This document shows, in pieces, positions 31,168 through 53,860 of a DNA stretch of 64,000 nt. The stretch is from Candidatus Heimdallarchaeota archaeon (GTDB lineage: Archaea; Asgardarchaeota; Heimdallarchaeia; Heimdallarchaeales; Heimdallarchaeaceae), in assembly GCA_030603365.1 (NCBI GenBank), contig JAUVXV010000002.1, positions 96,001-160,000 of the forward strand, in the 5' to 3' direction. How positions within the stretch are numbered: position 1 is the stretch's first letter; each line of letters starts with the position of its first letter. Under the pieces are notes generated by a model that was given only the letters and a program-made list of their open reading frames with translations, did not search any database and was not told the DNA's origin. A program made the position numbers and the translations under genes.

Positions 31168-31190
31168 ATGCTATATCTCGATGCTTTAAA

Positions 31191-32402
31191 CTAATTTACT
31201 CTTGTTGATTCGATTAAGGGAATTTCAGTTATTTCTTTTTTTGACTGAAAAAAGATCATATAATTAGCATATAATAGACTTAATACAATTTGAATATAAC
31301 CATAAATACTATTTCTAACAATTGGAATCAATAATACAACAATAATAACTGATGGTAAAACTATGTAAAGAATTACTGAATTGATACGAATAGCTAATAA
31401 GATAATTGATAAAGAAAAACTGAATACTGAAAATATTATTAATACAGGAAAAACGAAAGAGAAATAGAAATAAAAAGGATAAAGCAAAAAACCAATAAAA
31501 ATCTGTTTCTGATTAAAAAGAAGAATTTTGAATCCCCATATAGTTCTTAATAAATTAACTGCCCTTATCTTCTTCTGATCAAATCTTTCCTTTACTTTTG
31601 TAGGAAAATGCTCAAAATAATAAACTTGTTTAGAGAAATGCACTTTAAAACCTTTTTTTATTATCCATAGCGATGATTCATTATCATAACAGCCATTAAT
31701 ATTTTTTAAATCTGAAATCAAATTTCTCCGCAAAATAACTAATTCACCTTTTACTATAAATGTTGATCCAATGTTTGTTTCTTTCATTCTTAATAAATCA
31801 AAAAAACTTTGGTAAAAAATCTCCATTTTTGAACTTCTTTTCTCTGGATTTAAAATTTTACATGATCCTGAGATTGAGCCCACATCTTGATTTTTTGTAA
31901 AAATATCAATAGCTGATTTGATTGCTGTTTCGCCAATAAGAGAATGAGAATCTGTTAGAACCACATATTCAGATTTTGCATTTTCTACTCCTAGCATTAT
32001 AGCTCTGTTATAACCCATTCTTTCTTTTGAATGAATTAGTTGAATATTATCATATTTTGTTTGAATTTTTGAAATAATATTAGGCGTATTGTCAGTTGAA
32101 TCATCTATAACAAAAATTTCAATTCTTGATGGATAATCAATATTCAAAATCGACGATAATTTAGTTTCAATTACTTTTTCCTCATTATGTGTTGGGATTA
32201 CAATTGTTATTGGTACATACTGAGTACCTGCAAATTCAGTTTCTGAAGATAATGATTTTCTTGTATTTGATGATTTCACATACACAAAGAGATTGCCTAT
32301 TATCAAACTAACAAAATAAAAGAAAATGGGCATGAATGGAACAAATGTTACTATTAGAAATATCAAATCAAGATGTAACATTGGAAACATAAATGTGCCC
32401 AT
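31191..32402 (-). CDS. GT2 glycosyltransferase, membrane-bound CesA/IcaA-like
   Basis: N-terminal TM, IPTHNEE, IDDSTD, TDSH, QKKIR (QxxRW-like), C-terminal TMs. Confidence 0.85.
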   Translation of the reverse strand: MGTFMFPMLHLDLIFLIVTFVPFMPIFFYFVSLIIGNLFVYVKSSNTRKSLSSETEFAGTQYVPITIVIPTHNEEKVIETKLSSILNIDYPSRIEIFVIDDSTDNTPNIISKIQTKYDNIQLIHSKERMGYNRAIMLGVENAKSEYVVLTDSHSLIGETAIKSAIDIFTKNQDVGSISGSCKILNPEKRSSKMEIFYQSFFDLLRMKETNIGSTFIVKGELVILRRNLISDLKNINGCYDNESSLWIIKKGFKVHFSKQVYYFEHFPTKVKERFDQKKIRAVNLLRTIWGFKILLFNQKQIFIGFLLYPFYFYFSFVFPVLIIFSVFSFSLSIILLAIRINSVILYIVLPSVIIVVLLIPIVRNSIYGYIQIVLSLLYANYMIFFQSKKEITEIPLIESTRVN

Positions 32403-32647
32403 GCTTTAAAATTTTTCTCCTATTTCATTTAAGAAGAATTTTCTAATGCCCTTATTGAATCATCTAGAATGAAAAATTCAATCATTTAAATAAACTAAAT
32501 ATAATTCATATGAAAGTAAAGATGTGTTTTACATTGCAAAAGATTATTAATTAAGTATTTAGTTGAAATTGTTGAAGAAAAACTGATAAGACACATCTAA
32601 ATTGGAAACTCAACTGTAAATTCAACAAAGTTATTTAAAAAATCAAG

Positions 32648-34807: not shown

Positions 34808-34826
34808 ATTGTTATTTACTGACACC

Positions 34827-35984
34827 TCATTCTCTAATATTCATATTTACCAATGATTCAAACCATTTTAATAATCTCTCAATACCCTCCTCAAATGAGT
34901 AGATAACATAATCTATCTTTTTTATTTTAGAATCATACATTTCCAAAATAATATCTGCTAGTTCTCTTTCATTACCTGCATTAAAAAATTTTGCATATCC
35001 TGTGAATTGCTCAACAGCAGAACCAACTCTAGATGCAATAATTGGAAGATTATAATGTGCTGCTTCTATCAGAGTGAGTTGACATCCCTCTGAAAAGCTA
35101 GCACTTAGGAGAGCAGAGCTTCTATTGTATAGCATGGTTATCGTTTTATTTTCTACATAGCCTAACCATTTAATTTGTTCCTGTATCTTATATTCTCTAA
35201 TTCTTTTTTTAATCTTATTTGTATAAAATTTTCCAAAGAAAGGCATTTCACTACCTGCTATAAGTAGCTTAATGTTCTTATTGTTTGCAATTTTCAATGC
35301 TTCTATAATTGTATGAATACCTTTAGTGTAATAAAGTGATCCAACAAAAAGTAGAAGAAAGTCTCTATCTTTTAATTGATGTGAATTCTGATATATCTTC
35401 CATTCTTCTTCATTGCTCAAATATTCTTTGTAATTACTGAATAAACCATAAGGCAAGGTAAAAATTTTTTCAGCTGAAACTCCTAAATGTATTAAACTTT
35501 TAGTCATGTTCTCTGATATAGAGAGATAGAAGTATCGTTCTTTAATAACTTTTTTCTTAAAGTATTGAATTGTTTTATACCAGACTCTAAAAAGAAGGGA
35601 AATTGAAAAAGGAGATAGATCGTCTTTAATATAAAATCCTGGTTCGTCATGAAATAATATAATGGTCTTGATGTTCTTGGGTGTTGGTAAAGCATAACCA
35701 GAATAAACTGAAGATAGTATTAAATCAGGTTTAATTTTTCTACAAACTTTTCTAAGTTTTTTTTTTCCAAAGATTCTATAGAAAACATATTCAAAAAATG
35801 GAATTTTAAAACTGTAGGTAGGATTGAAAAAGATTTCACCTATACCATCAAATGTTTTATCATCAGTTATTGAAAAAAGATCTATTTTTGTTTCAAAATG
35901 CAACTTTATTAGTTTTGAAATTCTTTCAGCGCCATATTTCGGAGACCCCAATCCTCTAGAAACATACAATACTCTCATAAACAT
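34827..35984 (-). CDS. GT4 glycosyltransferase
   Basis: FVGSLYYTKG, SEGCQLTLIEA (Ex7E), PIIASRVG. Confidence 0.9.
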   Translation of the reverse strand: MFMRVLYVSRGLGSPKYGAERISKLIKLHFETKIDLFSITDDKTFDGIGEIFFNPTYSFKIPFFEYVFYRIFGKKKLRKVCRKIKPDLILSSVYSGYALPTPKNIKTIILFHDEPGFYIKDDLSPFSISLLFRVWYKTIQYFKKKVIKERYFYLSISENMTKSLIHLGVSAEKIFTLPYGLFSNYKEYLSNEEEWKIYQNSHQLKDRDFLLLFVGSLYYTKGIHTIIEALKIANNKNIKLLIAGSEMPFFGKFYTNKIKKRIREYKIQEQIKWLGYVENKTITMLYNRSSALLSASFSEGCQLTLIEAAHYNLPIIASRVGSAVEQFTGYAKFFNAGNERELADIILEMYDSKIKKIDYVIYSFEEGIERLLKWFESLVNMNIRE

Positions 35985-36028
35985 CCCTTTAGATTTTCAT
36001 TTAATAAAAATGTTGTTATGGATTTATA

Positions 36029-37153
36029 CTAATCTAGCAATCTCATAAATATGTCATCAGAGAGAAAGTAGTTTACAACATTTTCCATTGTAACTGAAAT
36101 AGGGTATTGAGGTTTGTATCCTAATTCTTTTTTAGCTTTTGAATAATCACAAACTAATATATTTACCTCTGTTGGTCTGTATCGCGATTTGTCGATTTCA
36201 AGACGATAGTCAATATCAAATAATGAAGCTGTAAGTTTAGCAAGATTTTCAATTGATATTCCATATCCATGACCTAGATTGTATACTTCACCCTTTGTGC
36301 CATTTAATATTGCTAATATGTATCCTTGAATCATATCTCGAATGTCTGTAAAATCTCTTATTGGTTTAGGGTTACCAATTCTAATAATTCTAGTTCCTTT
36401 CTTAATTGCTCCTGCCACTTGGCTAGCAATAACAGATGTCACGAATTGTAAACCTCTTTTTGGACCTGTATGGTTAAAACCTCTTGTTATTGTAACTGGT
36501 ACACCATATGCTCTAAAGTAAGTGAGTGAATACATTTCTGTAGCGACTTTACTAACTGCGTACGGTGATTGAGGTCTTAATGGATTGTTTTCATTAATTG
36601 GTATTTCATGTGGATGAACTAGTCCATATTCTTCACTACTACAAGCAACTTGCATGCATTGAAGATCAATGTTTTTTTTTCGTATTACTTCTAGTAAATT
36701 GACAGTTCCCTGAATGTTTGTGTGAATTGATTCAATTGGAGCTTTAAAGGATGTTGGGACAAAAGATTGAGCTGCTAAATGAAAAATATAATTTGGTTCT
36801 ATTTCAGTAATAGCTGATTCAAGAGAAGGGTAATCTATTAAATTTGCTTCTTTTAATATCACCTGATCTGTTATATTTCTTATATTTGGAAAAATTGGGA
36901 CAGATTGCCTTCTTACAGTACCGTAAACCTCTATATTCTCATCTAGTTCAACCAGTTTTTCAGCTAAATGACTTCCAACAAAACCAGTTATCCCAGTTAT
37001 TAAGATTCTTGAATCTGCCAATTTATTCCTATCGAAAAGCTCCTTTTTTTCCTTATCAAATTCTTGTAGATATATATCTATACAATCAGGATTTATTAAC
37101 AAATCTTTATATTTTTCATTAATCTCCTCAAAGAACTTATCTTCATTATTCAT
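36029..37153 (-). CDS. gmd: GDP-mannose 4,6-dehydratase (or related GDP-sugar SDR)
   Basis: LITGITGFVGSHL, HLAAQSFV, SSEEYG, SPYAVSK, FNHTGP; adjacent to fcl. Confidence 0.75.
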   Translation of the reverse strand: MNNEDKFFEEINEKYKDLLINPDCIDIYLQEFDKEKKELFDRNKLADSRILITGITGFVGSHLAEKLVELDENIEVYGTVRRQSVPIFPNIRNITDQVILKEANLIDYPSLESAITEIEPNYIFHLAAQSFVPTSFKAPIESIHTNIQGTVNLLEVIRKKNIDLQCMQVACSSEEYGLVHPHEIPINENNPLRPQSPYAVSKVATEMYSLTYFRAYGVPVTITRGFNHTGPKRGLQFVTSVIASQVAGAIKKGTRIIRIGNPKPIRDFTDIRDMIQGYILAILNGTKGEVYNLGHGYGISIENLAKLTASLFDIDYRLEIDKSRYRPTEVNILVCDYSKAKKELGYKPQYPISVTMENVVNYFLSDDIFMRLLD

Positions 37154-37247
37154 GTTTTTCGAATGTTTATCTTGTTATAAATATCTTTTGAAAAATATTG
37201 AATTATTACTCTAAAATGAGTATAGGAGATACTTCAAGTTTTTCTTA

Positions 37248-38195
37248 TTATTTTGTTTCAGATTTGTTGTTCAAATACCATTCATATGTTTTGACTATAC
37301 CTTCTTTCAAGGTTGTTTTTGCCTGCCACCCTAGGTTATTAATTTTGGTTATATCTAAAAGCTTCCTTGGAGTTCCATCAGGTATTGAAGTGTCATATGT
37401 TATATCACCTTCATAGCCAATAATACTTTTAATCAGAATTGCTAGTTCTTTTATTGATATGTCTTTTCCTACTCCTATATTTATCAATTCGGATGAAGAA
37501 TAATTGTCTATTAAAAATATACAAGCTTCTGCTAAATCATTTATGTAAAGGAATTCTCTTTTTGCTGAACCTGTCCCCCACAATTCAACAGATGGAATCT
37601 GGTTCTCTTTTGCTTCATGTATTTTCCTTATTAATGCAGGTAATACATGAGAAGTTTTTAGATCAAAATTATCTCTAGGACCATAAAGATTAGTTGGCAT
37701 TGCTGAGATGAAATTTGTTTCATATTGTTTATTATAAAACTGGCACATTTTAATACCTGCTATTTTCGCAATTGCATAAGCTTCATTTGTAGGCTCCAAC
37801 GAACCAGTAAGCAGATACTCTTCTTTTATTGGTTGTTCTGCGAATTTTGGATAAATGCAAGAGCTTCCTAAGAAAAGAAGTTTATTTGAAGAAAATTTGT
37901 ACGCAGAATCAATAATGTTTGATTGAATCATTATGTTATCATAAATAAATTCTGCAGGAAACGTTTTATTAGCAAGTATCCCTCCAACTTTCGCTGCGGC
38001 TAAAACAACATAACTAGGTTTTTCACTTCTAAAAAATTCAATTACTTTGTTTTGATTTCTGAGATCTAAATCCTTACTAGTTCTAGTGATTATATTTGTA
38101 AAACCTTTTTCTAATAACTTTTTTTGTATTGATGAACCAACCAGTCCATTATGCCCAGCTATGTAAATTGAGTCTTCTTTTTTCATGTATAACAC
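37248..38195 (-). CDS. fcl: GDP-L-fucose synthase
   Basis: AGHNGLVGS, AAKVGGI, LGSSCIYPK, LEPTNEAYAIAK, MPTNLYGP, WGTG. Confidence 0.95.
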   Translation of the reverse strand: MLYMKKEDSIYIAGHNGLVGSSIQKKLLEKGFTNIITRTSKDLDLRNQNKVIEFFRSEKPSYVVLAAAKVGGILANKTFPAEFIYDNIMIQSNIIDSAYKFSSNKLLFLGSSCIYPKFAEQPIKEEYLLTGSLEPTNEAYAIAKIAGIKMCQFYNKQYETNFISAMPTNLYGPRDNFDLKTSHVLPALIRKIHEAKENQIPSVELWGTGSAKREFLYINDLAEACIFLIDNYSSSELINIGVGKDISIKELAILIKSIIGYEGDITYDTSIPDGTPRKLLDITKINNLGWQAKTTLKEGIVKTYEWYLNNKSETK

Positions 38196-38228
38196 TACGT
38201 TTCTGCTTTATAATATTAGATTTAATCT

Positions 38229-39584
38229 TTATTCAATTTTTCTATCTCTGTATTTCAATCTACCTTTCTTAATGGAAAGAACAATACATATTCCAGAGAG
38301 AATTAAAGTAGATATGAACCAAGAGAAATTCACAGAAATTAAGTTAAATATAGGTTTGAAGATAAAAATACTTGCAAAATACAATCCAGTTTGTAGTGCA
38401 AACAGTATTTGAAGTAATCCTCTTTCGTTTCTTTGTCGTAATGCTGATATGTATATGAGAAATAGAGAGAGAGGATAAATTGATAACAAAATGAGTAGGA
38501 AAGACCAGAAATAGACCATAGAAAATTCTAAACCAAAAAGACCAATAATGAACTTCTGTAAAGCTAACAATGGAATAATTATTATTGTATCGATAATAAA
38601 TGCAAATTTAAATCTTGAGAGTAGCGTTTTAAGAGTTGTATCTCTTCTCTCTGTTATTAGAACAAAAGACAAAGAATTAGGAAACGAAGCTAACATACCC
38701 AGTATCGCCCAAGAGATATATATAAAAGCAGCATCTTCTGTATTGAAGAGTTTTATTACGATAGGGGTAGTTAGAAGCATTGGTAGAGATTGAATTAATG
38801 TTCCTGTATAATTATTAAATGAGAAAGAAACAAACTTCCGTAGTGAAATACTTTCTCCTTTCTGGGTTTGCGTTTCTGACTTTTCTCTCTTTTTGAATAT
38901 AATGAATAATAAAGTAGCTACAACACTGATTAGTTGAGAAGTTCCCCATACTATAAGCATACTTATTTCAGTATTATGAATATTAGAAAATACTATCAGA
39001 AAAATTCCAGAGAATAAAGACACAGTAAAAATGGCTTCCTTAATTAGCAGAAAATATGGGCTTTTTATCCCTACAAGTATATCATCAAATATAAGGAAAA
39101 GTGACACTATTATAGTAGTTAACAATGTCAAGAAAAACCAATTTGTTTTGCTTATATCTAATAGTTCTCTTAAGTAATTAAAAGTACTAACAAAAACTAA
39201 GGCTGCAATGAAATTAAGAGATAAAGGAATTAAGGAAATTGAGAACAATTGCTTTTTTCTAAAAGAATATAATGGAAATTTTAGAAACGCAGTTTGGATT
39301 CCAAACATCGCAAAAATAGCCCCTAATCTTAGAACAGAAACAACTGAGGACAATACTCCAACACCATCAGCCTCAAAAAAATACCCAATAACTATCCAAA
39401 AGATAAAAGCAATCGCACTACGAAATCCTATTGTAATAAAGCGAAGTATTGTTGCTTTATATACATCTTGTTTCCAATATTTATTGATATTATTAATAAC
39501 ATAATTCTGCATGAAACTCTTCAATTTTAAGCATCTTCCATTCGAAGTTACCATAAGAAATTTAAGTTTCGAATTTTCTTCCAA
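38229..39584 (-). CDS. Wzx/MATE-like oligosaccharide flippase
   Basis: About 12 TMs with a Wzx-like N-terminus (FIFWIVIG...GVG); true start may be downstream (MQNYV). Confidence 0.75.
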   Translation of the reverse strand: MEENSKLKFLMVTSNGRCLKLKSFMQNYVINNINKYWKQDVYKATILRFITIGFRSAIAFIFWIVIGYFFEADGVGVLSSVVSVLRLGAIFAMFGIQTAFLKFPLYSFRKKQLFSISLIPLSLNFIAALVFVSTFNYLRELLDISKTNWFFLTLLTTIIVSLFLIFDDILVGIKSPYFLLIKEAIFTVSLFSGIFLIVFSNIHNTEISMLIVWGTSQLISVVATLLFIIFKKREKSETQTQKGESISLRKFVSFSFNNYTGTLIQSLPMLLTTPIVIKLFNTEDAAFIYISWAILGMLASFPNSLSFVLITERRDTTLKTLLSRFKFAFIIDTIIIIPLLALQKFIIGLFGLEFSMVYFWSFLLILLSIYPLSLFLIYISALRQRNERGLLQILFALQTGLYFASIFIFKPIFNLISVNFSWFISTLILSGICIVLSIKKGRLKYRDRKIE

Positions 39585-40338
39585 ATTTCTTATAGTTCCA
39601 AGTTCTACCTACATGTTCTGTTTTACTTATAATCTTCTTATCTTCTCTAACATAAATCCACTTTTTCTGCGGGATTTGCCAATTATCACCATAATAATAT
39701 GCTAAATATTCTTCAGAATTTTGAGGAATAAGAAAATCCATATCATAGAATTTAGTATTCTCTAGACTTAGAAAATATTTACTTGGTGTAACTACCAATC
39801 CTCTTCTGTTACCTGTTTTACTAGCTAAAGTGTTTAAAAAAGAAGCTGTTTTTAGTTTCAAGAATTCAGGAATTAAATCTGTCATTTTTGATCCTATAAA
39901 TTTTATAATTTTCATAGATGAATTAAAAGTTTCTTTGTTAAGTTTTCCAGAATGAGAAAATAGCACTATCCAATTTAATGATGCAAGAACAAAGCCAATT
40001 TTATTTTCAATATATCTTAAAGGAGCAATTACTTCATCCTCTTTCAACCTCCAGAAGACAAGTTGAACATCAATTTCTCCTTTTCTAATCATCATCACAT
40101 TATGATAGACTGAAAAATAGGTTTCATACCCATGCTCACAAAATTCTTTATTCAGTTTTTTCATTTTAGGCATATAAGTATCCCAGGTTCCTAAATCTAT
40201 GTCATAATCCCACTTGATGAAAGCTCCTTCTCTAATAGCACCAAGCAGAGTTCCTGATTCTAACCAAAATTCAACTTCATTTGTTTCTAGAATTTTCTTG
40301 ATTAATTTCAGAGCTTCCACTGCGTCAAATTCTTCCAT
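39562..40338 (-). CDS. LicD/fukutin-family phosphotransferase
   Basis: WLESGTLLGAIREGAFIKWDYDIDL and YLAYYYGDNWQIP. Confidence 0.9.
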   Translation of the reverse strand: MEEFDAVEALKLIKKILETNEVEFWLESGTLLGAIREGAFIKWDYDIDLGTWDTYMPKMKKLNKEFCEHGYETYFSVYHNVMMIRKGEIDVQLVFWRLKEDEVIAPLRYIENKIGFVLASLNWIVLFSHSGKLNKETFNSSMKIIKFIGSKMTDLIPEFLKLKTASFLNTLASKTGNRRGLVVTPSKYFLSLENTKFYDMDFLIPQNSEEYLAYYYGDNWQIPQKKWIYVREDKKIISKTEHVGRTWNYKKFGRKFET

Positions 40339-40796
40339 TTATTTTCACTTAGTAGCGTATATACAAATTAAACAAATTTCAATTTATTTAATTATTATGG
40401 TATGGCGTGTCTATTTTTTTATATCTCTCGTATTTTAAAAAACAACTGCTTGTTTCTTTATATTTGATAGATTTTCTTCTAATCTTATTTTACAATTTTC
40501 TTTGACACCATTTCAAGTATAGGTGAGGGTTTTTCATGAGAAAGATGAAAAAACAGAAGTCTGAAGAAAAAGTTAAAAATGAATTTCAAGAATAAAAAGG
40601 GATACTTAAATATAAGAAAATGAGTGTTAAAAAAGAGATGTTTGTAATAGGTGTTATTTTAGAGAACTTCTGAACAAGTTTTATACTTAAATTAATATAT
40701 ATATATTTATGAGATATAATTAAGGAGAAATGAATCTATGTATTTTAAATTAATAGACTATCTAAGCTAAAATCATCTAGAATAAATGGTGGAACA

Positions 40797-41906
40797 ATGA
40801 ATATTGCATATTACATCTCATCTTTTGGATTAGGTCATACTTCTAGAGCAATACCCATTATCCAGAGATTGAAAGCTGAAAATAAGGTTTTTGTTAAATG
40901 CACTTCTTTGAGTATGAACTCTATTAGAGGTAATATACAAAATCAAGATAATCTATTTATTTTTAAGAAAATAAACGATTTATGGTTAAAATATAGATAT
41001 AGTGAACCATTAATTGAAGAAAGTATTGATGAAGCTTACACTTTCTATGAGAATTTGTATGAAAAAATAATTGATCAAGAGAAGAAATTCATTCAAAATA
41101 ATAAAATAGATCTGATTATATCAGATATTGCTCCTTTCCTAGATAAGGTTAGTAAAGAGAACAATATTCCTATTATTGGTATTAGTAACTTTGATTGGGG
41201 AGTGCTTTTCAATCATTTATATGAGAAATATCCATATAGAAAACTAGAAAGAATATCTCAAAGGCTCTCAGATTCTTTTGAATCATATGATCTTCAAATT
41301 GCTTTACCTCTTAATAAAAATCTACTAACTAATAAGAACAGAAAGAAGGTAGGATTTTACACAAAATTAGCAACTAGAAATAAACAAGAGATTTTCAAAT
41401 TACTAAACTTAAAAAATGATTTAATGACGGTTTTCCTTTCTTTAGGAATGTCTATAGATTTGCCATTGGAGACATTTAAAGAAATATTTCTGGAAACTGA
41501 TTATCAAATAGTTGCATCAAATAGAAACAAAATAAAAAATCAATCAAATTTTAAGTTTGTTCCTAAAGGTGATTTTAAAGTTCAAGACTATATTTCTGCA
41601 TCTGACATCTTTATAGGAAAACCAGGCTGGGGATCATTAAGCGAATGCTATTGTTTTTCAATTCCAGCGATTTTAATAGAATTTGGCGAGAATTTAGAAT
41701 GGCAGATTATGATTAATGAATATATCAATTTCAAACCAAATACTTCCAAAATATCTTTCTCTGAATTGAACAGAAAAAACTTAAATAGACTGATTGAAAA
41801 AGCACGAAATACAGAAGAAATAAAAATTGAAGAAAAGTATTCAAAGGCATTGAAAATAAGTAACAAGACTCTTAATGAGATATATAACATAATAAGTGAA
41901 TTTTAG
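40797..41906 (+). CDS. GT-B glycosyltransferase (MJ1255/GT28-like)
   Basis: YYISSFGLGHTSR, DLIISDI, DIFIGKPGWGSLSE. Confidence 0.75.
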   Translation: MNIAYYISSFGLGHTSRAIPIIQRLKAENKVFVKCTSLSMNSIRGNIQNQDNLFIFKKINDLWLKYRYSEPLIEESIDEAYTFYENLYEKIIDQEKKFIQNNKIDLIISDIAPFLDKVSKENNIPIIGISNFDWGVLFNHLYEKYPYRKLERISQRLSDSFESYDLQIALPLNKNLLTNKNRKKVGFYTKLATRNKQEIFKLLNLKNDLMTVFLSLGMSIDLPLETFKEIFLETDYQIVASNRNKIKNQSNFKFVPKGDFKVQDYISASDIFIGKPGWGSLSECYCFSIPAILIEFGENLEWQIMINEYINFKPNTSKISFSELNRKNLNRLIEKARNTEEIKIEEKYSKALKISNKTLNEIYNIISEF

Positions 41907-41999
41907 ATTCAGAAAATTCTATAATAAGTTTAGGATTTATATACCAAGGTTCTAAAGATACTCTTTTAATATCTGCATCAAATTTTTATATGATTTAAA

Positions 42000-43301
42000 A
42001 TGTCAACTGTTTATGTAGCTTTGAGTGCAGATTTTATTCATGCTGGACATATTAATATCCTGAAGACAGCAAGAGAACTAGGTGATGTAATTATAGGTTT
42101 GTTAACTGATGAAGCTATTGCAACATACAAACGATTACCAGTTTTAGATTATGATCAAAGGAAAATGTTAGTGGAAAATATAATAGGTGTATCTAAAGTT
42201 ATACCTCAAGAAACGTTAGATTATACAGAAAACCTAAGAGAAATCAAACCAGATTATGTTGTTCATGGTACTGATTGGAGAACTGGAGTACAAAAAATAA
42301 CCAGAGAAAGAGTAATAGAAATCTTGAAAGAGTGGGGAGGGAAGCTTATAGAACCAGAATATACTGAGAATTTATCTTCATCAGATTTAATACGAGATAA
42401 ATTTGGAATTGGGACTACTCCTGATGCTAGAATGAAGAAATTAAGAAGATTAATCAATCTCAAACCTTTAGTGAGAATTATAGAAGTTCACAATGGATTA
42501 ACTGGAAGAATAGTGGAAGAAGTTAAGATTACAGAAGGCGAAACTATTCGAGAATTTGATGGAATGTGGATAAGTAGTTTAACTGATTCCACTGCAAAAG
42601 GAAAACCAGATACCGAGTACGTAGACATTACATCAAGATTACAGACGATAAATGAAATTTTTGATGTAACAACAAAACCCCTTATTCTTGATGGAGATAC
42701 TGGTGGTTTACCTGAGCATTTCCATTTAACTGTAAGAACTCTTGAACGCTATGGAGTTTCAGCAGTTATCATTGAAGACAAAATTGGTCCAAAAAGAAAT
42801 TCATTATTTGGTGCAGATGTTCAACAAACACAAGATACAATTGATAATTTTAGCTTTAAGATAAATATAGGTAAAAAAGCTCAAATTACTGAAAGCTTTA
42901 TGATTATAGCAAGGATAGAGAGCTTCATACTTAAAAAGGGATTAGAAGATGCTTTGAAAAGAGCAAAAGCATATATTGAAGCTGGTGCAGACGGTATAAT
43001 GATTCATAGTAAAGAGAAGACTCCAAAAGAGATATTAGATTTCTGTGATGAATATTCAAAATTTGAAAAAAAAGTTCCTCTTGTCGCTGTTCCTTCAACT
43101 TTCAGTACAATAACTGAGGATGAGTTGATTGATGCTGGAGTAAAGATTGTAATTTATGCAAATCATCTACTACGTAGCGCATACCCTTCTATGATTAAGA
43201 CAGCTAAAAGTATTTTAATGAATCGTAGATGTCATGAAGCTTCTGAGGTAAATTGTATACCAATAAAAGAAATTATTAGATTAATACCAGGAGCAGAATA
43301 A
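42000..43301 (+). CDS. pepM: Phosphoenolpyruvate mutase with N-terminal cytidylyltransferase domain
   Basis: HAGH nucleotidyltransferase motif; PepM signature [10 protein letters not shown] (EDKx5NS); DGDTG, IIARIES. Confidence 0.95.
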
Positions 43302-44431
43302 TGAAATGCGAAGAGCTCTGGAAGATTTTCAAAGATGAAAATTTGACTTTTTTTACTGGTGTTCCCGATTCTACATATAAATCGTGGATGAGTTTTTTGG
43401 ATAACAAAACTGGGAAGGGTCTAACAAATATTATAGCAAGTAATGAATGTGAAGCCATTGGGATAGCAGCAGGATATCATTTAGCTACAAATGAGGTAGG
43501 GATTGCTTACATGCAAAACGCGGGATTAGGAAAAACAGTGAATCCCATAACATCTTTAGCAGATAAAGAAGTATATTCAATACCAATGTTGCTTTTGATT
43601 GGATGGAGAGGAGAACCTGGAAAAAAAGATGAACCCCAGCACAAGAAAATGGGGAGAATTACACTTCCTTTACTTAATGTTTTAGAGATACCTTACTCTA
43701 TCCTTCCATCTAACGAAGAAGAAGCTAGAATGACAATAAAAACAGTAAAAAATAAAATAAAAAATAATAATTCTCCTTATGCATTGATAGTCAAAAAAGG
43801 AACATTAGATCCTTTTATCTCAACAGATATTGAAGAAGAAGAAGAATATGAATTAAGGAGAGAAGAAGTCATTAAAATCATTATTGATAATATCAAAGAC
43901 AAATATGTCATTGTAGCAACCACTGGAAAAACGTCAAGAGAACTATTTGAAATCAGAATGATGAGAAAAGAACAGCCTAAAGATTTTTACACAATTGGTT
44001 CAATGGGATGTGCGTCCTCGATTTCTTTAGGAATTGCTTTGAATTCTTCTAAAAAAACGCTAATTCTAGATGGAGATGGAGCTACTCTTATGCAAATGGG
44101 AACATTAGCAACGATTGGATATTATAAGCCAGAAAATCTCCATCATATAATATTTGATAATCATTGTCATGAATCCACAGGAGGGCAGCCTACAGTCTCT
44201 AAAATTGTTCAATATGATAAAATAGCGTTATCTTGTGGATATAATTCAACTAAAACAATATTCAATAGAAAAGAATTAATGAATTACATAAATGTAATTG
44301 ATAAAATTAAATGTCCTAGTTTAGCAATTATTAAAGTAAGAAAAGGTTCAAGATCAGATTTAGGTAGACCTACAATTACACCCTATGAAAACAAAATAAG
44401 TTTTATGAAACTATTCCAAGATGAGACATAA
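43301..44431 (+). CDS. ppd: Phosphonopyruvate decarboxylase
   Basis: FTGVPDS, MQNAGLG, GWRGEPG..DEPQH, GSMG, DGDG...N..HESTGGQPT. Confidence 0.95.
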   Translation: MKCEELWKIFKDENLTFFTGVPDSTYKSWMSFLDNKTGKGLTNIIASNECEAIGIAAGYHLATNEVGIAYMQNAGLGKTVNPITSLADKEVYSIPMLLLIGWRGEPGKKDEPQHKKMGRITLPLLNVLEIPYSILPSNEEEARMTIKTVKNKIKNNNSPYALIVKKGTLDPFISTDIEEEEEYELRREEVIKIIIDNIKDKYVIVATTGKTSRELFEIRMMRKEQPKDFYTIGSMGCASSISLGIALNSSKKTLILDGDGATLMQMGTLATIGYYKPENLHHIIFDNHCHESTGGQPTVSKIVQYDKIALSCGYNSTKTIFNRKELMNYINVIDKIKCPSLAIIKVRKGSRSDLGRPTITPYENKISFMKLFQDET

Positions 44432-44452
44432 CCATAATAAGAAGGTGAATGA

Positions 44453-45607
44453 ATGGAGGAGTACTATAATCCAGTAAAAATTGTATTTGGGTCATCATCT
44501 CTAAATCAAATAGGAAAAATAGTAGAAAAATATAAACTCAATAATAAAATCCTCATTATATCTGGTAAAACTATGAGAGAGCTTGGAGTAATACAAAGAA
44601 TTGAAACTATATTAGAGAAAAATGAAAATGTAGTAGAAACTTTCGAAAAAGTATTTGCTAATCCTACTTTTAGATTAATAGATGAAACAACTCTTTTAGC
44701 TAGAAGAGGCGAATATGGGTTGATAATTGGTATAGGAGGAGGATCCTCTCTTGATTGTGCGAAATGCACTGCAATCTTATCAAAAAATGAAGGAAATATA
44801 TCAGATTATTTATTCAATTATAAAAATATCACAAATTCTGGAATCCCTTTCATAGCAATTCCTACAACTGCAGGAACAGGGAGTGAAGTTACTATGTGGG
44901 CAACAGTTTGGAGAAATGATGATGAGTTCAAGAAAAAATACTCGATGTCGGATAAGAAAATGTATGCAAAAGTAGCAATAGTAGATCCTGAGTTAACTTT
45001 GAGTCTTCCTCCTTACCAAACAGCAATAACTGGTTTAGATGCGCTTTCTCAAGCTATTGAGGCATATTGGTCAAGAAATCACAATCCGACATCAGATAAA
45101 CATGCTCTTGAAGCAATATCATTAATCTTTAACAATGTTGAAATAGCTTTCAAAGATTCTACTAATCTAGAAGTCAGAGAAAAAATGCTATTTGGTAGTT
45201 TGGAATCAGGGTTAGCATTTAGTAATACAAAAACAACAGCTGTACATTCTGTTTCATACCCTATAACCGCTTTGTATAATGTACCTCACGGTTTAGCTTG
45301 TGCATTAGTTTTAGGGAGTTTCCTTGTATTTAACTCCAAAGTATGTAATGAAAATCTTCCAGAAGCTTCAGATAGAATAGAAAAAATCGTTGAATGCCTA
45401 GATTCTCAAAATGCATTAGAAGCTAAAGAAAAAATCGAAAATCTAATGAAGAAAATGAATCTTCCTACAAAACTTAGTGAACTAGGTATTGATGAAAATG
45501 GTATAGATTTAATCATTAAGGAAGGTTTTACTAAAGGAAGGATTGAAAATAATCCAAGAAAAGTTACTAAAAATGATTTATATAAAATACTAATAAATTT
45601 ACTTTAG
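44453..45607 (+). CDS. Phosphonoacetaldehyde reductase (group III Fe-ADH, PhpC/FomC-like)
   Basis: GGGSSLD, IPTTAGTGSEVT, DALSQAIEAYWS, AFSNTKTTAVH, HG; directly follows ppd. Confidence 0.85.
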   Translation: MEEYYNPVKIVFGSSSLNQIGKIVEKYKLNNKILIISGKTMRELGVIQRIETILEKNENVVETFEKVFANPTFRLIDETTLLARRGEYGLIIGIGGGSSLDCAKCTAILSKNEGNISDYLFNYKNITNSGIPFIAIPTTAGTGSEVTMWATVWRNDDEFKKKYSMSDKKMYAKVAIVDPELTLSLPPYQTAITGLDALSQAIEAYWSRNHNPTSDKHALEAISLIFNNVEIAFKDSTNLEVREKMLFGSLESGLAFSNTKTTAVHSVSYPITALYNVPHGLACALVLGSFLVFNSKVCNENLPEASDRIEKIVECLDSQNALEAKEKIENLMKKMNLPTKLSELGIDENGIDLIIKEGFTKGRIENNPRKVTKNDLYKILINLL

Positions 45608-45618
45608 GTATCAGTAAT

Positions 45619-46362
45619 ATGAAAGCACTAATATTAAATTCAGGTGTTGGAACAAGATTAAAACCAACAACAAATTTATTGCCAAAATGTTTGATTGAGA
45701 TAAATGATCAGACTATTTTAGAACGCCAACTTAATGCATTAAAACAGATTAACATTCACGATTATATAATAACAACTGGACCTTTCGAAGAGAAATTAAT
45801 TGGTTTTGTAAATGAAAAATTCAAAGATTTAAATGTAACATATGTTAAAAACACTTATTACGATACAACTAACTATATTTACTCTATTTGGCTCGCTAGG
45901 AATAAAATTGACGATGATATTTTACTTCTTCATGGTGATCTAGTGTTTGATCCATCGCTTCTAGAACGTTTAATTAACACAAAAAGTAATAACTATATTT
46001 TAGTTAATAATACAATTCCTCTACCCAAAAAAGATTTCAAAGCTTTGGTATTAGATAACAAAATAAAGAAGATAGGAGTAAATTTCTTCGGGGAAAACGT
46101 ATATTTCTGTGCCCCACTTTATAAAATAAAAAAAGAAACAATGAAGATTTGGATTAAGAAAATGAATGAGTTCATAAAAAATGGAAAAGTAGCAAGTTAT
46201 GCAGAAGATGCACTAAATGAAATCACTGATCAAATAGATCTTCTACCCTTGTACTACACTAAAGAATTCTGTATGGAAATTGATTCACATGAAGACCTTA
46301 AAATAGCAAAAGAATACTTCCATAAGGACAAAAATGTATCTAAAAACAAAAGAAAGCAGTAG
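45619..46362 (+). CDS. Phosphonate/phosphocholine cytidylyltransferase (PntC/LicC-like)
   Basis: ILNSGVGTRL...PKCL, TNYIYS, HGDLVF, EIDSHEDL. Confidence 0.85.
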   Translation: MKALILNSGVGTRLKPTTNLLPKCLIEINDQTILERQLNALKQINIHDYIITTGPFEEKLIGFVNEKFKDLNVTYVKNTYYDTTNYIYSIWLARNKIDDDILLLHGDLVFDPSLLERLINTKSNNYILVNNTIPLPKKDFKALVLDNKIKKIGVNFFGENVYFCAPLYKIKKETMKIWIKKMNEFIKNGKVASYAEDALNEITDQIDLLPLYYTKEFCMEIDSHEDLKIAKEYFHKDKNVSKNKRKQ

Positions 46363-46475: not shown

Positions 46476-47525
46476 TCATTCTTGCATGAAATATTTCCAA
46501 TATAGGATTTCATCTTCACCTAAATCTTGCAGAATTTTCTTCCCCAGTATTAAGTCATAATAAGTTGGATCAATTCCTTTTCCTGGTCTCTTTGTGGTGA
46601 TGTCATCAGCTGTAATCACTTGTCCTTTTTTCAATGCTTTAGCTGTAACTATTGATCTTCTCGCATTTTTCCTTGCTGGTAACTCTGCATTAATAATTCT
46701 CTTCTCCTCATCTCCTAGAATTTTTGTAACAAGTTCAACATTATCTGAAAGTAGTTTTAGGTCTTGAGGATCCATTGCATGGTAATGATCATTTCCAGGA
46801 AGAGTTTTATCTAGAGTAAAATGCTTTTCTAGAACAGATGCACCCATCAGATGAGCAACTATCAGAGTAATCATAGCTTTATCTGGTTTAGTGTGATCTG
46901 AATACCCTACAAGATTTTCTGGAAAGATTTTCTTTAGATGCTTTATCATTCGAAGATTGGCATCTTCAAACTTTGTTGGGTAGCTCAGAATGCAGTGCAA
47001 CGGGACTATAGGCACATTTTCAACCACTTTGATCGTTGTAATCGCATGCTCTATTTCTCCCAAGGTTGCTGCGCCAGTTGATAGGAAAATAGGTTTCTTT
47101 TTCTCAGCGATATAACGCAAGAAAGGTATATTGGTAATATCAGCTGAAGCAATCTTATAAAGTGGAACTAGTGGGTCTAGAAAATCTACTGCATTATTAT
47201 CGAAAGGAGTTGACAGAAAGAATATTTTGTTTCTTTCCGCTTCTTTAGCTAAATCTCTATAATCATCCTCTTCAAAAGTGTCATATTGTTTGAAAAAATC
47301 CCTTTGGGTTTTGTTTGTATCCCAATATGCTGGAGAATCTTTAGCAGCGATAGTCTCAGCTTTGTATGATTGGAATTTGATTGCATCTGCACCGTTTTTA
47401 GCTGCTTCCCTCACCATTTCTAGAGCTGTTTCCATGCTGTTTTCGTAATTAACACCAGCTTCTGCAATGATGAAAGGTTTTCCACCTTCTTGGATAGTTC
47501 TATCTCCAATCTTCAAGCTTTTCAT
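46476..47525 (-). CDS. Nonulosonic acid synthase (NeuB/PseI/SpsE family) with C-terminal SAF domain
   Basis: IIAEAGVN, KFQ, STPFD, KIAS, LHC..SYP, GYSDHT, EKHFTLD, ARRS, KRPG. Confidence 0.92.
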   Translation of the reverse strand: MKSLKIGDRTIQEGGKPFIIAEAGVNYENSMETALEMVREAAKNGADAIKFQSYKAETIAAKDSPAYWDTNKTQRDFFKQYDTFEEDDYRDLAKEAERNKIFFLSTPFDNNAVDFLDPLVPLYKIASADITNIPFLRYIAEKKKPIFLSTGAATLGEIEHAITTIKVVENVPIVPLHCILSYPTKFEDANLRMIKHLKKIFPENLVGYSDHTKPDKAMITLIVAHLMGASVLEKHFTLDKTLPGNDHYHAMDPQDLKLLSDNVELVTKILGDEEKRIINAELPARKNARRSIVTAKALKKGQVITADDITTKRPGKGIDPTYYDLILGKKILQDLGEDEILYWKYFMQE

Positions 47526-47532
47526 ATGATTT

Positions 47533-49236
47533 CTACTCTGGTGGTATATTTAAGATATTCGAAGGGAATTTTTCATCGTAGTGGTCAAAAATAGTTCTCA
47601 AAACGCGTTTGATTCCACTTCTTAAATCATAGCGAAGATGAGATTTGTTCATCTCTAATCGTTTAGAATAATCTTCTAACAATAATTTCAATTCTTGTTC
47701 TATTTTTGAATCAATTTGTTCATCTGCTAATCCAAGATAGGTTACACCTGGTGCTTCTTCTGCGAAAGTATGGAGGGTTTCTCGTTCATTTTGGGCTATA
47801 GTGATACATGGTACTCCAATCGCAGCAATTTCAAAGACTGTTCTACCATTGGAAGTTATCGCTAAATCAGCCTTGTACATGTGTTGAGACATGAGTTTTA
47901 CATCTTGAAACACATTTATCTTAAAACCAGATTTATTCATCACAGAAGCGAGTTTTTGGATGTTTTCTAGCGATTTGTAACCTAATCCCAATATAAGAGT
48001 TATATCAATGTCTTTCAACTGTAGTTTTTCTATTGTTTTCAGACAAGTTTTAGAGAGATTGTTTTGATCGACTCCCCCAAAGGTAATTAGGATGTTTTTT
48101 ACTTCTTTCTCTATTGTTTTAAATGGGACAAGATGAAATTCATCTCGCAAACATAGGTACTTGTATCCGTTGAAAATATGATCTTGTTTATCTTCAGTAT
48201 CTGTAGCATTGACAGCATTAAACACTAAATCTGCTTCTTTTAAACCAGCTGCTAAATCTTCAAAAGTTACTAAGAAGGGGTTATAGGATTTTATTTGTTG
48301 AAGATAATTTTCTTCTGTGTCAAGAATATCTATTAGAATAATATCAGGGTCATTATTTTCTATAACTTTGAAGAATTCTTCTTCCTTCTCAATCTCTACT
48401 ACTTCGAAGTTCTGAGAATATACTTTTGCTAATCCTAACTTTGATGATTTCTTAATTACAAATTTAACATCGTGTTCTAGTAGATTATTTGCTATTGTGA
48501 TCATTCGATAAATATGCCCCATTCCTATTTCATTATCTCCATCTACTCGTAAGAGAAACTTCTTTCTAGAGAGTATTTTTTCTGCTAATGTCCAGTCAAG
48601 ATAATTATCGATATCTATCCCTTCTAATTCGGATAGTTCGAAAATCTCCAGCGGTTCGACCATCCTTGTACTTTCTGTTACAATTTCTGATTTAGAGATA
48701 ACAAATCCACCTGTTTCAAAAAATACTGGTTCAAGTTGCCGCCTATTCAATCTTTTAGGATAATAAGGAGATAATTGCTTATCCTTCTTCTCCCAGAAAA
48801 GATGTTGTGTTGGAATAACAGAAATCATTGACGAACTATTTTTTTCTACAAACTTCTCTATTGCTTTATCTAATGAACTTGTTTTTAATAATGGACTAGT
48901 TGGTTGTAGAGTGATAATTATATCAAATTCTGTATTCGATTGTTCTTGATAAGCTTTGTAAGCATGATAAATAACGGGATCTAAAGTTGTTTGATCTTGA
49001 GCTAAATCTGAAGGACGTTCTATAATCTTATCTGCACCAAAAATGTAGGAGATGTTTCCGATTTCACTATCATCTGTAGTTACAACTGTTTTATCAATGT
49101 ATTTTGATTTCTTAGCTGTTTTGATGATGTAAGCAATTAGGGGGTTCCTATTTAGAAATCTAATATTTTTTCTAGGAATTATTTTCGAACCTCCTCGAGC
49201 AGGTATTATAGCAAGTATTCTCTTATCTTTATACAC
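47533..49236 (-). CDS. Fusion of acylneuraminate cytidylyltransferase (NeuA/PseF) and PseG/SpsG-like GT-B UDP-sugar hydrolase
   Basis: IPARGGSK..PRKN, LQPTSP, DIDN, then RVDG...IGMGHIYR, ITFGGVD, DLAITSNGRTVFE. Confidence 0.88.
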   Translation of the reverse strand: MYKDKRILAIIPARGGSKIIPRKNIRFLNRNPLIAYIIKTAKKSKYIDKTVVTTDDSEIGNISYIFGADKIIERPSDLAQDQTTLDPVIYHAYKAYQEQSNTEFDIIITLQPTSPLLKTSSLDKAIEKFVEKNSSSMISVIPTQHLFWEKKDKQLSPYYPKRLNRRQLEPVFFETGGFVISKSEIVTESTRMVEPLEIFELSELEGIDIDNYLDWTLAEKILSRKKFLLRVDGDNEIGMGHIYRMITIANNLLEHDVKFVIKKSSKLGLAKVYSQNFEVVEIEKEEEFFKVIENNDPDIILIDILDTEENYLQQIKSYNPFLVTFEDLAAGLKEADLVFNAVNATDTEDKQDHIFNGYKYLCLRDEFHLVPFKTIEKEVKNILITFGGVDQNNLSKTCLKTIEKLQLKDIDITLILGLGYKSLENIQKLASVMNKSGFKINVFQDVKLMSQHMYKADLAITSNGRTVFEIAAIGVPCITIAQNERETLHTFAEEAPGVTYLGLADEQIDSKIEQELKLLLEDYSKRLEMNKSHLRYDLRSGIKRVLRTIFDHYDEKFPSNILNIPPE

Positions 49237-49319: not shown

Positions 49320-50477
49320 TTACTCCTCATAATAGCCGTATAACTTAGCTATTTCATATGTTTCTTCTTTAATTGTAGCCAGTTCTTCATCACTAAAAGA
49401 GGGTTTGTAGTATGTTGGTTGATGAAGTTTCTGAATATATTTTTCTCTTAGCTCTGCAGATTTTTCCTTATCTAGCTCGAGATGTTCAATTATTTTATCT
49501 ATGGTTTCTTCTGAGTTATCAGTGAGATCTTCAAACCTTATTACTAATGTTTGTTTTGCCAATTCCTTGTTCTTGCTCAGCAAATCTGTTGTATACTCAT
49601 AAACTAATTTCCAATAGAATGCATAAGCTCTAACAAACGTTTCCTCTTTTTCAAGAAGCGCCCTAATTTTATCAATATTTTCCTTTGAATTTAGATTTAT
49701 GAAAACTTTTTCACTTCCAAATTCGATATGTCCCACCTTTGTGATCCAGTCTCTTATCTTATCATTTTCTTTTTCTAAATCCAAGAAGATTCTTTCTTGT
49801 TTAATGTAAGATGCAATATGATTTATTGGATGACGTATAACTAAAACAAATTTTACATCAGGGAATAATTTGTGTAGATACTCCATTCTAGTAATGTTGT
49901 AATTATTTTTTGTTACATATCGAGTTGATTTTTTACTAATCATCAGTTTCCTAATGCTTTCAGTGTAGAATTTCTCAAATTTAGGGTTAGATGTATTGCT
50001 ATCTTTTATATTTGATAATTGTTCATTATGCAATTCGTCAAAGAATCTCATCCATAACATTTCTTCAACTGCTTCTGGACTATTTCTATTAATCGCTAAT
50101 CCATCCTTATGAACTCGTTCTACTTTTTTTCTAAAAATAAAAGGAAGAAGTTTTGCTATATAATGCAGTATTTGTGGAATAAACGGGTCGATCAAGTGCA
50201 TATGCATATGAAAGGCTACATCTGGATGTTCCCCTATCATTTCTACTGTGATTGTGGTTCCAGCTCTTGCTAACCCTATAACATAGATTGGTTTTTCAAT
50301 ATTGATTTTACGTAATTTTCTCTTCATACATTTTGTTTCAAAATTACCTAGTTTTATTGTTGTTAAACGACTTTTTGTCAGCAGTTTCATTAAGTAGTAC
50401 ATAGGAACAGGAAAAGTAAATTCAGGTAGTTTATTCTTGTCTTTCTTTTGCTTTACCATAAAACCAATCAAAACCAA
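49320..50477 (-). CDS. PAPS-dependent sulfotransferase
   Basis: IGLARAGTT (5'-PSB), IRHP..HIAS (3'-PB), RFEDL. Confidence 0.88.
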   Translation of the reverse strand: MVLIGFMVKQKKDKNKLPEFTFPVPMYYLMKLLTKSRLTTIKLGNFETKCMKRKLRKINIEKPIYVIGLARAGTTITVEMIGEHPDVAFHMHMHLIDPFIPQILHYIAKLLPFIFRKKVERVHKDGLAINRNSPEAVEEMLWMRFFDELHNEQLSNIKDSNTSNPKFEKFYTESIRKLMISKKSTRYVTKNNYNITRMEYLHKLFPDVKFVLVIRHPINHIASYIKQERIFLDLEKENDKIRDWITKVGHIEFGSEKVFINLNSKENIDKIRALLEKEETFVRAYAFYWKLVYEYTTDLLSKNKELAKQTLVIRFEDLTDNSEETIDKIIEHLELDKEKSAELREKYIQKLHQPTYYKPSFSDEELATIKEETYEIAKLYGYYEE

Positions 50478-50591
50478 CTAATTGTATGAATAAAAAAAAC
50501 TTACTGTATCGCTTCTCATTTTTTTCTGATTTTCTAGAATTATTTAAACCAAAAAATTGAAAAGTCTAGTAAAGAGAATTGATATGACACC

Positions 50592-52709: not shown

Positions 52710-52774
52710 AATCTCTTTAGTTTTTTTCCTTTAATTAGGAAAGATTTTTTATTGTTTATAATATAAAGTACAAC

Positions 52775-53644: not shown

Positions 53645-53681
53645 AAGCGAATAAATAAGAATTGTCTCTCTTTTACTTCCT

Positions 53682-53843
53682 TTATTTTTCATCAGCTGAT
53701 TCAGCTTCATCTGAAATTAGTTTATTAAGTAAAAACACTATAAATTCTTCAACTGAATTATAATTGTCATCTAGTTCTACTTTTTCTGTTAATTCAGCAT
53801 AAAGCTCTTCTGGGATTTCTATTTCTTTGGTTTCTTTATTCAT
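53682..53843 (-). CDS. Small CopG/ribbon-helix-helix-like protein (53 aa), not in the ORF track
   Basis: MNKETKEIEIPEELYAELTEKVELDDNYNSVEEFIVFLLNKLISDEAESADEK shows the I.IP.ELY..L......y.SV.EFI..LL pattern; 17 nt downstream of the sulfotransferase. Confidence 0.7.
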   Translation of the reverse strand: MNKETKEIEIPEELYAELTEKVELDDNYNSVEEFIVFLLNKLISDEAESADEK

Positions 53844-53860
53844 TTTTATCATCTGTGAAG

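Follow-up and report, generated by a model that had tools for sequence, protein, structure and literature searches.

A predicted hydroxyethylphosphonate operon and a linked LicD gene, a candidate phosphonyl transferase, in a glycan island of a Heimdallarchaeaceae genome

A 64,000-nucleotide stretch of an Asgard archaeal genome (Candidatus Heimdallarchaeota archaeon, assembly GCA_030603365.1, contig JAUVXV010000002.1, positions 96,001 to 160,000; hereafter the window) contains a four-gene operon predicted to convert phosphoenolpyruvate (PEP) into 2-hydroxyethylphosphonate (2-HEP or HEP) and to activate it as the cytidine monophosphate derivative CMP-HEP. Divergent from the operon lies a LicD-family gene, a type of gene whose linkage to PEP mutase (PepM) recurs in Asgard archaea and in metagenomes, and which is a well-supported candidate for the phosphonyl transferase of this pathway. 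The module is a widely shared mobile cassette, and the glycan island of the Heimdallarchaeaceae genome in which it sits varies between strains. The new elements are the linkage of LicD with PepM in Asgard archaea and the candidacy of LicD as phosphonyl transferase; known chemistry and the picture of Asgard biology are unchanged, and the cluster is an ordinary example of a known and widespread cassette.

Phosphonates make up a large pool of the organic phosphorus in the sea; which organisms produce them, and what they do in the cell, is only partly known. Heimdall-type Asgard archaea now join the likely producers, and about a tenth of the sampled Asgard genomes carry HEP-type pathways. The repeated and independent linkage of LicD with cassettes of PepM, phosphonopyruvate decarboxylase (Ppd) and alcohol dehydrogenase (ADH) nominates a concrete enzyme for an uncharacterised transfer step; if true, LicD would catalyse the first transferase step to be defined in the assembly of phosphonoglycans, and also the first known from archaea. 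Because the same four-gene cassette is present in the cultured Lokiarchaeum ossiferum, phosphonate production by Asgard archaea is directly testable. The results have no bearing on phosphorus cycling, for which a first-pass annotation of the window, made from its letters alone, had considered the cluster notable.

The Operon and Its Enzymes

The four genes lie on the forward strand between positions 42000 and 46362 (Table 1) and form a tight operon, in which genes 1 and 2 overlap by one base and the following gaps measure 21 and 11 bases. The first-pass annotation had named them as a cytidylyltransferase-PepM fusion with an EDKx5NS motif, Ppd, an iron-dependent alcohol dehydrogenase (Fe-ADH) and a PntC/LicC-like gene, and the map of open reading frames and the family scans bear out every identity and position.

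The first gene encodes a bifunctional protein with an N-terminal cytidylyltransferase (residues 3-130) and a C-terminal PEP mutase (about 145-430). The mutase passes the equivalog cut-off of TIGR02320 (399.8 vs. 319.55 bits; 401.2 bits in the genome scan) and matches the Mytilus PepM structure 1m1b at E 3e-43. The EDKx5NS motif of the active-site lid, which distinguishes mutases from their relatives of the isocitrate lyase type, reads [10 protein letters not shown] (residues 259-268), and its residues E259, D260, K261, K265, N267, and S268 are invariant in an alignment of PepM relatives. The Mytilus catalytic and metal-binding set D58, D85, D87, E114, R159, and H190 pairs with D204, D231, D233, E259, R305, and H336 of the fusion, which are invariant or nearly so in the same alignment. 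The N-terminal domain matches the structure of the Fom1 cytidylyltransferase domain (5x3d) at E 2e-53 over its whole extent and includes the HxGH nucleotide-binding motif, present as HAGH at residues 14-17. In the account of Rice et al. (2019; PMC6697681), which cites Cho (2017), the Fom1 domain is a characterised HEP cytidylyltransferase. By analogy with Fom1, the N-terminal domain of the fusion would form CMP-HEP from cytidine triphosphate (CTP) and HEP.

Both PepM and Ppd, the latter a thiamine pyrophosphate enzyme, are present as single copies in the host genome. The third protein, predicted to act as phosphonoacetaldehyde reductase, shares its NAD-binding and metal-binding motifs (GGGS, TTAGTGSE, D196, H265, and H279) with all of 70 ADHs from related cassettes. 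Its second canonical metal-ligand position is occupied by glutamine (GLDALSQAIE) and not by histidine; among the cassette ADHs 48 of the 70 have glutamine and 22 have histidine at this site, and the best solved match, 6jko, likewise has glutamine.

The nearest solved relatives of the fourth protein, a nucleotidyltransferase of 247 residues, are LicC (1jyk, E 2e-12) and the PntC domain of Treponema Tde1415 (6pd1, E 1e-10). It is also the fourth cassette gene in the Heimdall and Loki relatives, at 44-53% identity. Because cassettes that lack LicD nearby also contain this gene, the context favours a phosphonate over phosphocholine as its likely substrate. Together with the Fom1-like domain it makes two candidate enzymes for the activation of HEP, so that the earlier proposal of CMP activation stands as a pathway step, and its assignment to a single enzyme does not. 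The intergenic regions upstream of PepM in the window and in a genome of the same genus (G029), read by eye, are AT-rich and contain TATA-like runs, and no motif common to them was seen.

The Predicted Product

Family scores and intact motifs support the route proposed in the first-pass annotation, which runs from PEP through phosphonopyruvate and phosphonoacetaldehyde to 2-HEP and CMP-HEP. It was also claimed that neither a transaminase forming 2-aminoethylphosphonate (AEP) nor MpnS/HepD is present, leaving 2-HEP as the end product; the absence is upheld across the host genome, which is 89% complete. The best genomic match to the AEP transaminase model reaches 208 bits, against a cut-off of 360.8; it is one of two class V aminotransferases (208 and 158 bits), both encoded on other contigs. 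The search for MpnS/HepD was seeded with four homologues found beside related cassettes, one of which matches methylphosphonate synthase 6b9s at E 6e-93; in the host genome tblastn gave nothing below E 1 and the hidden Markov model search gave 15 bits at best. The glycan island contains no radical SAM, cupin, oxygenase, or aminotransferase gene. With regard to phosphonate catabolism, C-P lyase (PhnJ) was not found in the host genome, and PhnX/phosphonatase models gave nothing over their cut-offs. Given that the genome has no AEP transaminase above cut-off and no MpnS/HepD, 2-HEP activated as CMP-HEP is the best prediction for the product of the operon.

Linkage of LicD and PepM

The single LicD gene of the host genome lies 1.7 kb from PepM. 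The DxDxD motif of its product (D44, D46, and D48) is invariant in the LicD alignment and aligns with that of FKRP (6kaj), the LicD family including the eukaryotic fukutin/FKRP proteins. Across 400 Asgard genomes LicD is rare (six genomes), yet four of these six also contain PepM, against a background of 42 in 400. In all four, LicD is located on the same contig as PepM and within 6 kb of it, the distance in two genomes other than that of the window being 0.1 kb (G029) and 4.5 kb (G003). Within the host family LicD is confined to three of the four genomes with PepM. The arrangements differ: G003 contains two LicD genes of canonical type, located next to Wzx genes, and G039 displays a single co-directional operon in the order PepM-NTP_transf_3, Ppd, ADH, nucleotidyltransferase, LicD. 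The four cases include different LicD subtypes and both of the PepM types described below, and therefore do not go back to one inherited event.

A metagenome scan seeded with the LicD alignment alone returned 80 loci, 16 of them with PepM within 10 kb; among the loci of at least 8 kb the proportion is 11 of 41. This rate is far above chance for a gene found in a few percent of genomes. The recurrence of the linkage supports LicD as a phosphonyl transferase, and the use of CMP-HEP as its donor is the most economical reading of the gene linkage. Rice et al. (2019; PMC6697681) proposed a role in phosphonyl transfer for genes of the LicD type that neighbour AEP clusters. Through LicD, the glycan destination assumed in the first-pass annotation is also supported. 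A phosphocholine (lic) system was considered for the locus and rejected: choline kinase and other lic genes are not nearby, and only weak kinase-fold matches to choline kinase occur, all on other contigs.

The Host and the Integrity of the Locus

The host assembly comprises 3.65 Mb in 17 contigs with a uniform GC content of 0.33 and is 89% complete. It contains an archaeal 16S gene, and elongation factor 2 (EF-2), encoded on another contig, shares 91% identity with Ca. Heimdallarchaeota proteins, 90% with that of AB_125 and 76% with that of Heimdallarchaeum aukensis. The sequence places the host as an Asgard archaeon of the Heimdallarchaeaceae, which sharpens the earlier assignment to a probable Asgard-type archaeon to the level of the family. 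Two EF-2-like genes are present in this genome (G000:C7:43701-45869 and G000:C14:18229-20205), scoring 648 bits and 408 + 68 bits on the archaeal aEF-2 model, both below its cut-off of 738.

The phosphonate genes occupy a central position on a 467-kb contig of genome-typical GC, with archaeal neighbours such as RadA and TFB. Across positions 30001-42000 of the window the GC content dips to 0.27-0.31. Mis-binning of these genes is very unlikely in view of the contig, the synteny with G029 (see below), and the PepM tree. In this quick maximum-likelihood tree, the window PepM belongs to a clade of seven Asgard sequences from Heimdall and Lokiarchaeum families (SH-aLRT 98), sister to Nano/Woesearchaeota; the other two of the nine Asgard sequences branch elsewhere. 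The tree fits exchange or long retention within Asgard archaea, together with further independent acquisitions. The two checks asked for at the outset, PepM phylogeny and contig taxonomy, both speak against bacterial DNA placed in the wrong bin.

The Cassette in Asgard Archaea

PepM scores over the cut-off in 42 of the 400 Asgard genomes, including cultured L. ossiferum, and in four of the 31 genomes of the host family. Eleven of the 42 have the Fom1-like form of about 435 residues and 31 have open frames of 519-585 residues; the two long-frame cases examined (G206 and G039) are PepM-NTP_transf_3 fusions accompanied by their own ADH, nucleotidyltransferase, and Ppd. The Heimdall and Loki relatives keep the four-gene set without extra tailoring genes.

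In the Loki-type and f20-family cassettes (L057:7380-9663, from L. ossiferum, and L138:5128-7400) the set is accompanied by a major facilitator superfamily (MFS) transporter and a 307-323-residue NTP_transf_3 protein with an N-terminal extension. No LicD or glycosyltransferase gene lies near either cassette, a hint that the phosphonate may be exported or bound to lipid and may not decorate a glycan. The destination of HEP would thus differ between Asgard lineages.

The expectation that such a pathway would be notable for this lineage has to be withdrawn, given its frequency in Asgard archaea, its presence in at least 593 species genomes (see below), and its existing annotation: GenBank already lists PepM for Heimdallarchaeaceae and for L. 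ossiferum, and some relatives in JGI records bear the label [quoted passage not shown] Papers linking Asgard archaea with PEP mutase or phosphonate biosynthesis, or discussing these pathways, were not found in the literature searched, where one cold-seep survey counts phosphonate clusters in six archaeal phyla.

Spread in Bacteria and Archaea

More than 8000 relatives of the fusion protein are present in the protein collection, the best 120 all sharing at least 67% identity with it. Named relatives come from Heimdallarchaeaceae (80%), Promethearchaeota, L. ossiferum, and Woese- and Nanoarchaeota. When one genome per species was scanned, at least 593 fusion loci with 59-71% identity were obtained, distributed over many bacterial and several archaeal phyla. 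In 88 loci examined, Ppd is present in 83 and ADH in 69; the usual order is PepM, Ppd, ADH, and in many loci these genes follow one another directly. A LicC-like gene in fourth place occurs chiefly in archaea, and bacterial loci instead often contain TagF-like transferases, YidC-sulfatase fusions, or CDP-alcohol transferases. The cassette ranks among the most frequent types of PepM in bacteria and archaea, and it is widely shared and horizontally mobile. In published surveys, 23.6% of all Ppm proteins are fusions of PF01467 with PepM (Rice et al., 2019; PMC6697681), and 8.5% of the neighbourhoods covered are of the HEP type (Li and Horsman, 2022; PMC8942020).

Several relatives carry additional genes. 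Cupins of the MpnS/HepD family adjoin the PepM cassette in an unclassified archaeon, in Nano/Woesearchaeota, and in a SAR86 bacterium (L070:8628-9986, L084:11333-12715, L104:11411-12778, and L122:7808-9187); the L070 cupin is the one that matches 6b9s, and these loci likely belong to methylphosphonate producers. B12-binding radical SAM genes with a Fom3-like architecture lie beside the cassette in DPANN and Elusimicrobia (L070:11317-12576, and eight open reading frames in L059, L073, L082, L095, and L096), where their products could methylate CMP-HEP to a hydroxypropylphosphonate. A stand-alone CTP_transf_like gene of 175-197 residues is located directly upstream of the fusion PepM in DPANN and Methanosarcinales (L058:9881-10432 and eight similar open reading frames) and would represent a third cytidylyltransferase. 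This small gene is the real cause of PepM tblastn matches about 400 bases too long in DPANN loci, for which inteins were considered and rejected.

The Surrounding Glycan Island

Table 1. Genes of the phosphonate operon and its neighbours, in window coordinates.
Feature	Position	Strand	Evidence
GDP-mannose 4,6-dehydratase and GDP-L-fucose synthase (glycan precursors)	36029..38195	-	PF16363 252.7 bits; NF047922 486.8 bits, just below cut-off 500; synteny with G029 at 77-80% identity
Polytopic membrane protein, 451 aa by TTG start, probable divergent Wzx/MOP-type flippase	38229..39584	-	co-oriented with LicD
LicD-family phosphotransferase, 258 aa, predicted cytoplasmic	39562..40338	-	PF04991 55.9 bits (cut-off 22.6); Mf1 model residues 7-226
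Divergent GT-B glycosyltransferase (lead), 93 bases upstream of PepM	40797..41906	+	PF13528 22.7 bits, below cut-off 25; TIGR00661 26 bits
Bifunctional Fom1-like cytidylyltransferase-PepM fusion, 433 aa	42000..43301	+	TIGR02320 and PF01467
Phosphonopyruvate decarboxylase, Ppd/Fom2-type	43301..44431	+	TIGR03297 440.6 bits (cut-off 312.5)
Group III Fe-dependent alcohol dehydrogenase, predicted phosphonoacetaldehyde reductase (PhpC/FomC/Pdh role)	44453..45607	+	PF00465, PF25137
LicC/PntC-like nucleotidyltransferase, 247 aa	45619..46362	+	PF12804 44.4 bits (cut-off 27); PF00483
NeuB-type nonulosonic acid synthase and PseF-PseG fusion (glycan precursors)	46476..49236	-	PF03102 255 bits; PseG 153 bits, PseF 135 bits

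The operon is embedded in an island of genes for GDP-fucose synthesis, NeuB, a PseF-PseG fusion, glycosyltransferases of families GT2 and GT4, sulfotransferases, a pyruvyl transferase, and a second Wzx-like gene. The same-genus genome G029 has the identical order GT2, GT4, gmd, fcl, membrane protein, LicD, PepM, Ppd, ADH, nucleotidyltransferase, NeuB, with 52-82% identity. The fucose synthase has an orthologue in G029 alone among 25 members of the genus, and this, with the restriction of PepM to a few genomes of the family, indicates that the island is strain-variable.

With respect to the upstream genes named in the first-pass annotation, the divergent LicD is confirmed by its Pfam match, the flippase is probable, and the glycosyltransferase stays below its family cut-off. 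The membrane protein encoded beside LicD contains seven long hydrophobic stretches, several of them sufficient for two helices. A Pfam scan of this protein gave nothing even at E 1, and BLASTP showed no significant similarity to the Wzx-like gene that the window itself contains; hhalign against a Wzx-like alignment gave a weak match (13% probability), and a language-model atlas scored it 0.99 to Polysacc_synt/Wzx clusters. It adjoins LicD in G029 as well (66% identity). The glycosyltransferase gene is the only island gene lacking a counterpart in G029, and for this reason is placed outside the conserved module. Its atlas score is 0.99 to clusters in which 10-20% of the members carry PF13528 (Glyco_trans_1_3), so that the GT-B assignment serves as a lead.

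On the other side of the operon, the NeuB-type synthase adjoins the fusion of PseF, a CMP-nonulosonate synthetase, with PseG; PseB/PseC and NeuC were not found in the window. Further along the same island (positions 49320-54442) lie genes for two sulfotransferases of the cytoplasm and for an arylsulfotransferase that is anchored in the membrane and whose N-terminal region weakly resembles SCP2. The surface glycan may be both phosphonylated and sulfated. At a distance from these genes, positions 17989-28286 hold five tandem paralogues of 656-673 residues on the reverse strand; in the two that were scanned (17989-20007 and 26316-28286) a family-5 solute-binding domain is confined to the C-terminal half.

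Proposed Mechanism and Alternative Readings

The proposed mechanism is as follows. The PepM domain would rearrange PEP into phosphonopyruvate, which Ppd would decarboxylate to phosphonoacetaldehyde, pulling the unfavourable mutase step forward, and the Fe-ADH would reduce the aldehyde to HEP. HEP and CTP would then be joined into CMP-HEP by the Fom1-like domain, by the LicC/PntC-like enzyme, or by both. On the cytoplasmic side of the membrane LicD would take the hydroxyethylphosphonyl group of CMP-HEP and attach it to a hydroxyl group on a sugar of a lipid-linked surface glycan, and the neighbouring Wzx-like protein would flip the decorated glycan outward. The glycan itself would be built by the surrounding island, from GDP-fucose and nonulosonic acid, through its glycosyltransferases, sulfotransferases, and pyruvyl transferase. 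That the operon makes CMP-HEP and that LicD places the hydroxyethylphosphonyl group on a surface glycan is considered probable. The layout of the operon, the identities of its genes, their intact motifs and conservation, and the linkage of LicD with PepM are observed; the individual activities, the donor and acceptor, and the way in which the two nucleotidyltransferases share their work are predicted from sequence. A broader statement, that Asgard archaea including L. ossiferum are phosphonate producers and that the Heimdall LicD is a phosphonyl transferase acting from CMP-HEP on a fucose/nonulosonate surface glycan, is put forward more tentatively.

Several points weigh against this mechanism. 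The Fe-ADH falls below the cut-off of the TIGR03405 Phn_Fe-ADH model (265.7 vs. 423.7 bits), which is still its top NCBIfam model, and two or more nucleotidyltransferases per cassette are a recurring and unexplained pattern. The absences reported above are not absolute in a genome that is 89% complete. Characterised LicD enzymes use CDP-choline or CDP-ribitol, and a characterised phosphonyl transferase of the LicD type was not found in the literature searched. The label of the flippase, which is probably correct, depends on language-model similarity and a weak profile match. The L. ossiferum cassette (in CP104013.1) has its MFS transporter and extra nucleotidyltransferase in place of LicD and glycosyltransferases. 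Finally, by analogy with fosfomycin biosynthesis, CMP-HEP could exist only briefly, as a form on which tailoring continues, and not be a transfer donor.

There are two alternatives for the product. HEP or CMP-HEP might end on a lipid head group or as a secreted small molecule, with LicD serving another CDP-alcohol donor. The L138 Asgard cassette, linked to a CDP-alcohol phosphatidyltransferase, an MFS transporter, and a sulfatase, speaks for this possibility, as do the L. ossiferum cassette with its MFS and NTP_transf_3 genes, a CDP-OH_P_transf gene between LicD and PepM in G003, and the TagF-like or CDP-OH transferases of bacterial loci. In the window, however, there is no CDP-OH_P_transf or MFS gene near the operon, LicD adjoins a Wzx-like gene, its linkage to PepM recurs in independent lineages, and no choline kinase or lic gene is at hand to point to another donor. 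This outcome is consequently regarded as unlikely. Less likely again is that CMP-HEP serves as an intermediate only, with more tailoring before the final product, or that AEP is formed by a non-canonical aminotransferase. Cytidylylation of HEP is transient in fosfomycin biosynthesis, in the account of Rice et al. (2019; PMC6697681, citing Cho, 2017), related DPANN and bacterial loci have a Fom3-like B12-radical SAM or MpnS beside the same core, and the two host class V aminotransferases do score on the AEP transaminase model; but they fall far short of its cut-off and lie on other contigs, the island is devoid of tailoring or aminotransferase genes and the genome of MpnS/HepD, and the Heimdall and Loki relatives have no tailoring genes added to their four.

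It is highly improbable that the cluster is foreign DNA in the wrong bin or a decayed, non-functional remnant. PepM is 60-71% identical to bacterial proteins, the GC content of the 30-42 kb region lies below that of the genome, and few of the family genomes share PepM; against this, the cluster sits between archaeal neighbours deep in a long contig, the whole island is syntenic in G029, PepM falls inside the supported Asgard clade, and none of the reading frames is broken, the catalytic residues being conserved. The transfer of hydroxyethylphosphonyl from CMP-HEP to a surface glycan by LicD remains the preferred reading.

Comparison with Known Systems

The early steps of fosfomycin biosynthesis in Streptomyces wedmorensis (Fom1-Fom2-FomC) involve the same cytidylyltransferase-PepM fusion and the same Ppd and Fe-ADH roles, leading to HEP and CMP-HEP. 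The window differs in lacking Fom3 (the B12 radical SAM methyltransferase), FomD, and Fom4; with LicD and a glycan island at hand, CMP-HEP is more likely a transfer donor than an intermediate of an antibiotic route.

The bacterial phosphonyl-tailoring (Pnt) clusters likewise combine a PF01467-PepM fusion with Ppd, a LicC-like PF12804 enzyme and nearby LicD-like and glycan genes, and their predicted product, like that of the window, is a cell-surface phosphonate (Rice et al., 2019; PMC6697681). By contrast, the characterised PntC of these clusters acts on AEP and an AEP transaminase is present, whereas the window has an Fe-ADH in that place, from which HEP is predicted, and its host is an Asgard archaeon.

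With Nitrosopumilus maritimus (ppm-ppd-pdh-mpnS; MpnS structure 6b9s) the window shares an archaeal PepM-Ppd-ADH core for the synthesis of HEP. The product of N. maritimus is believed to end as exopolysaccharide esters (Lockwood, 2022; PMC9381506). N. maritimus possesses MpnS, however, and since the host genome has no gene of the MpnS/HepD family, methylphosphonate is not predicted for it.

The phosphonoglycans of Glycomyces and Stackebrandtia, reportedly described by Yu et al. in 2014 (J Bacteriol), are said to carry 2-HEP on a polysaccharide whose structure was established by nuclear magnetic resonance. The same fusion PepM is present in a Stackebrandtia metagenome-assembled genome (L090). 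These systems have the 2-HEP glycan end product that is predicted for the window, but they differ from it in their bacterial hosts and in a different island and set of transferases.

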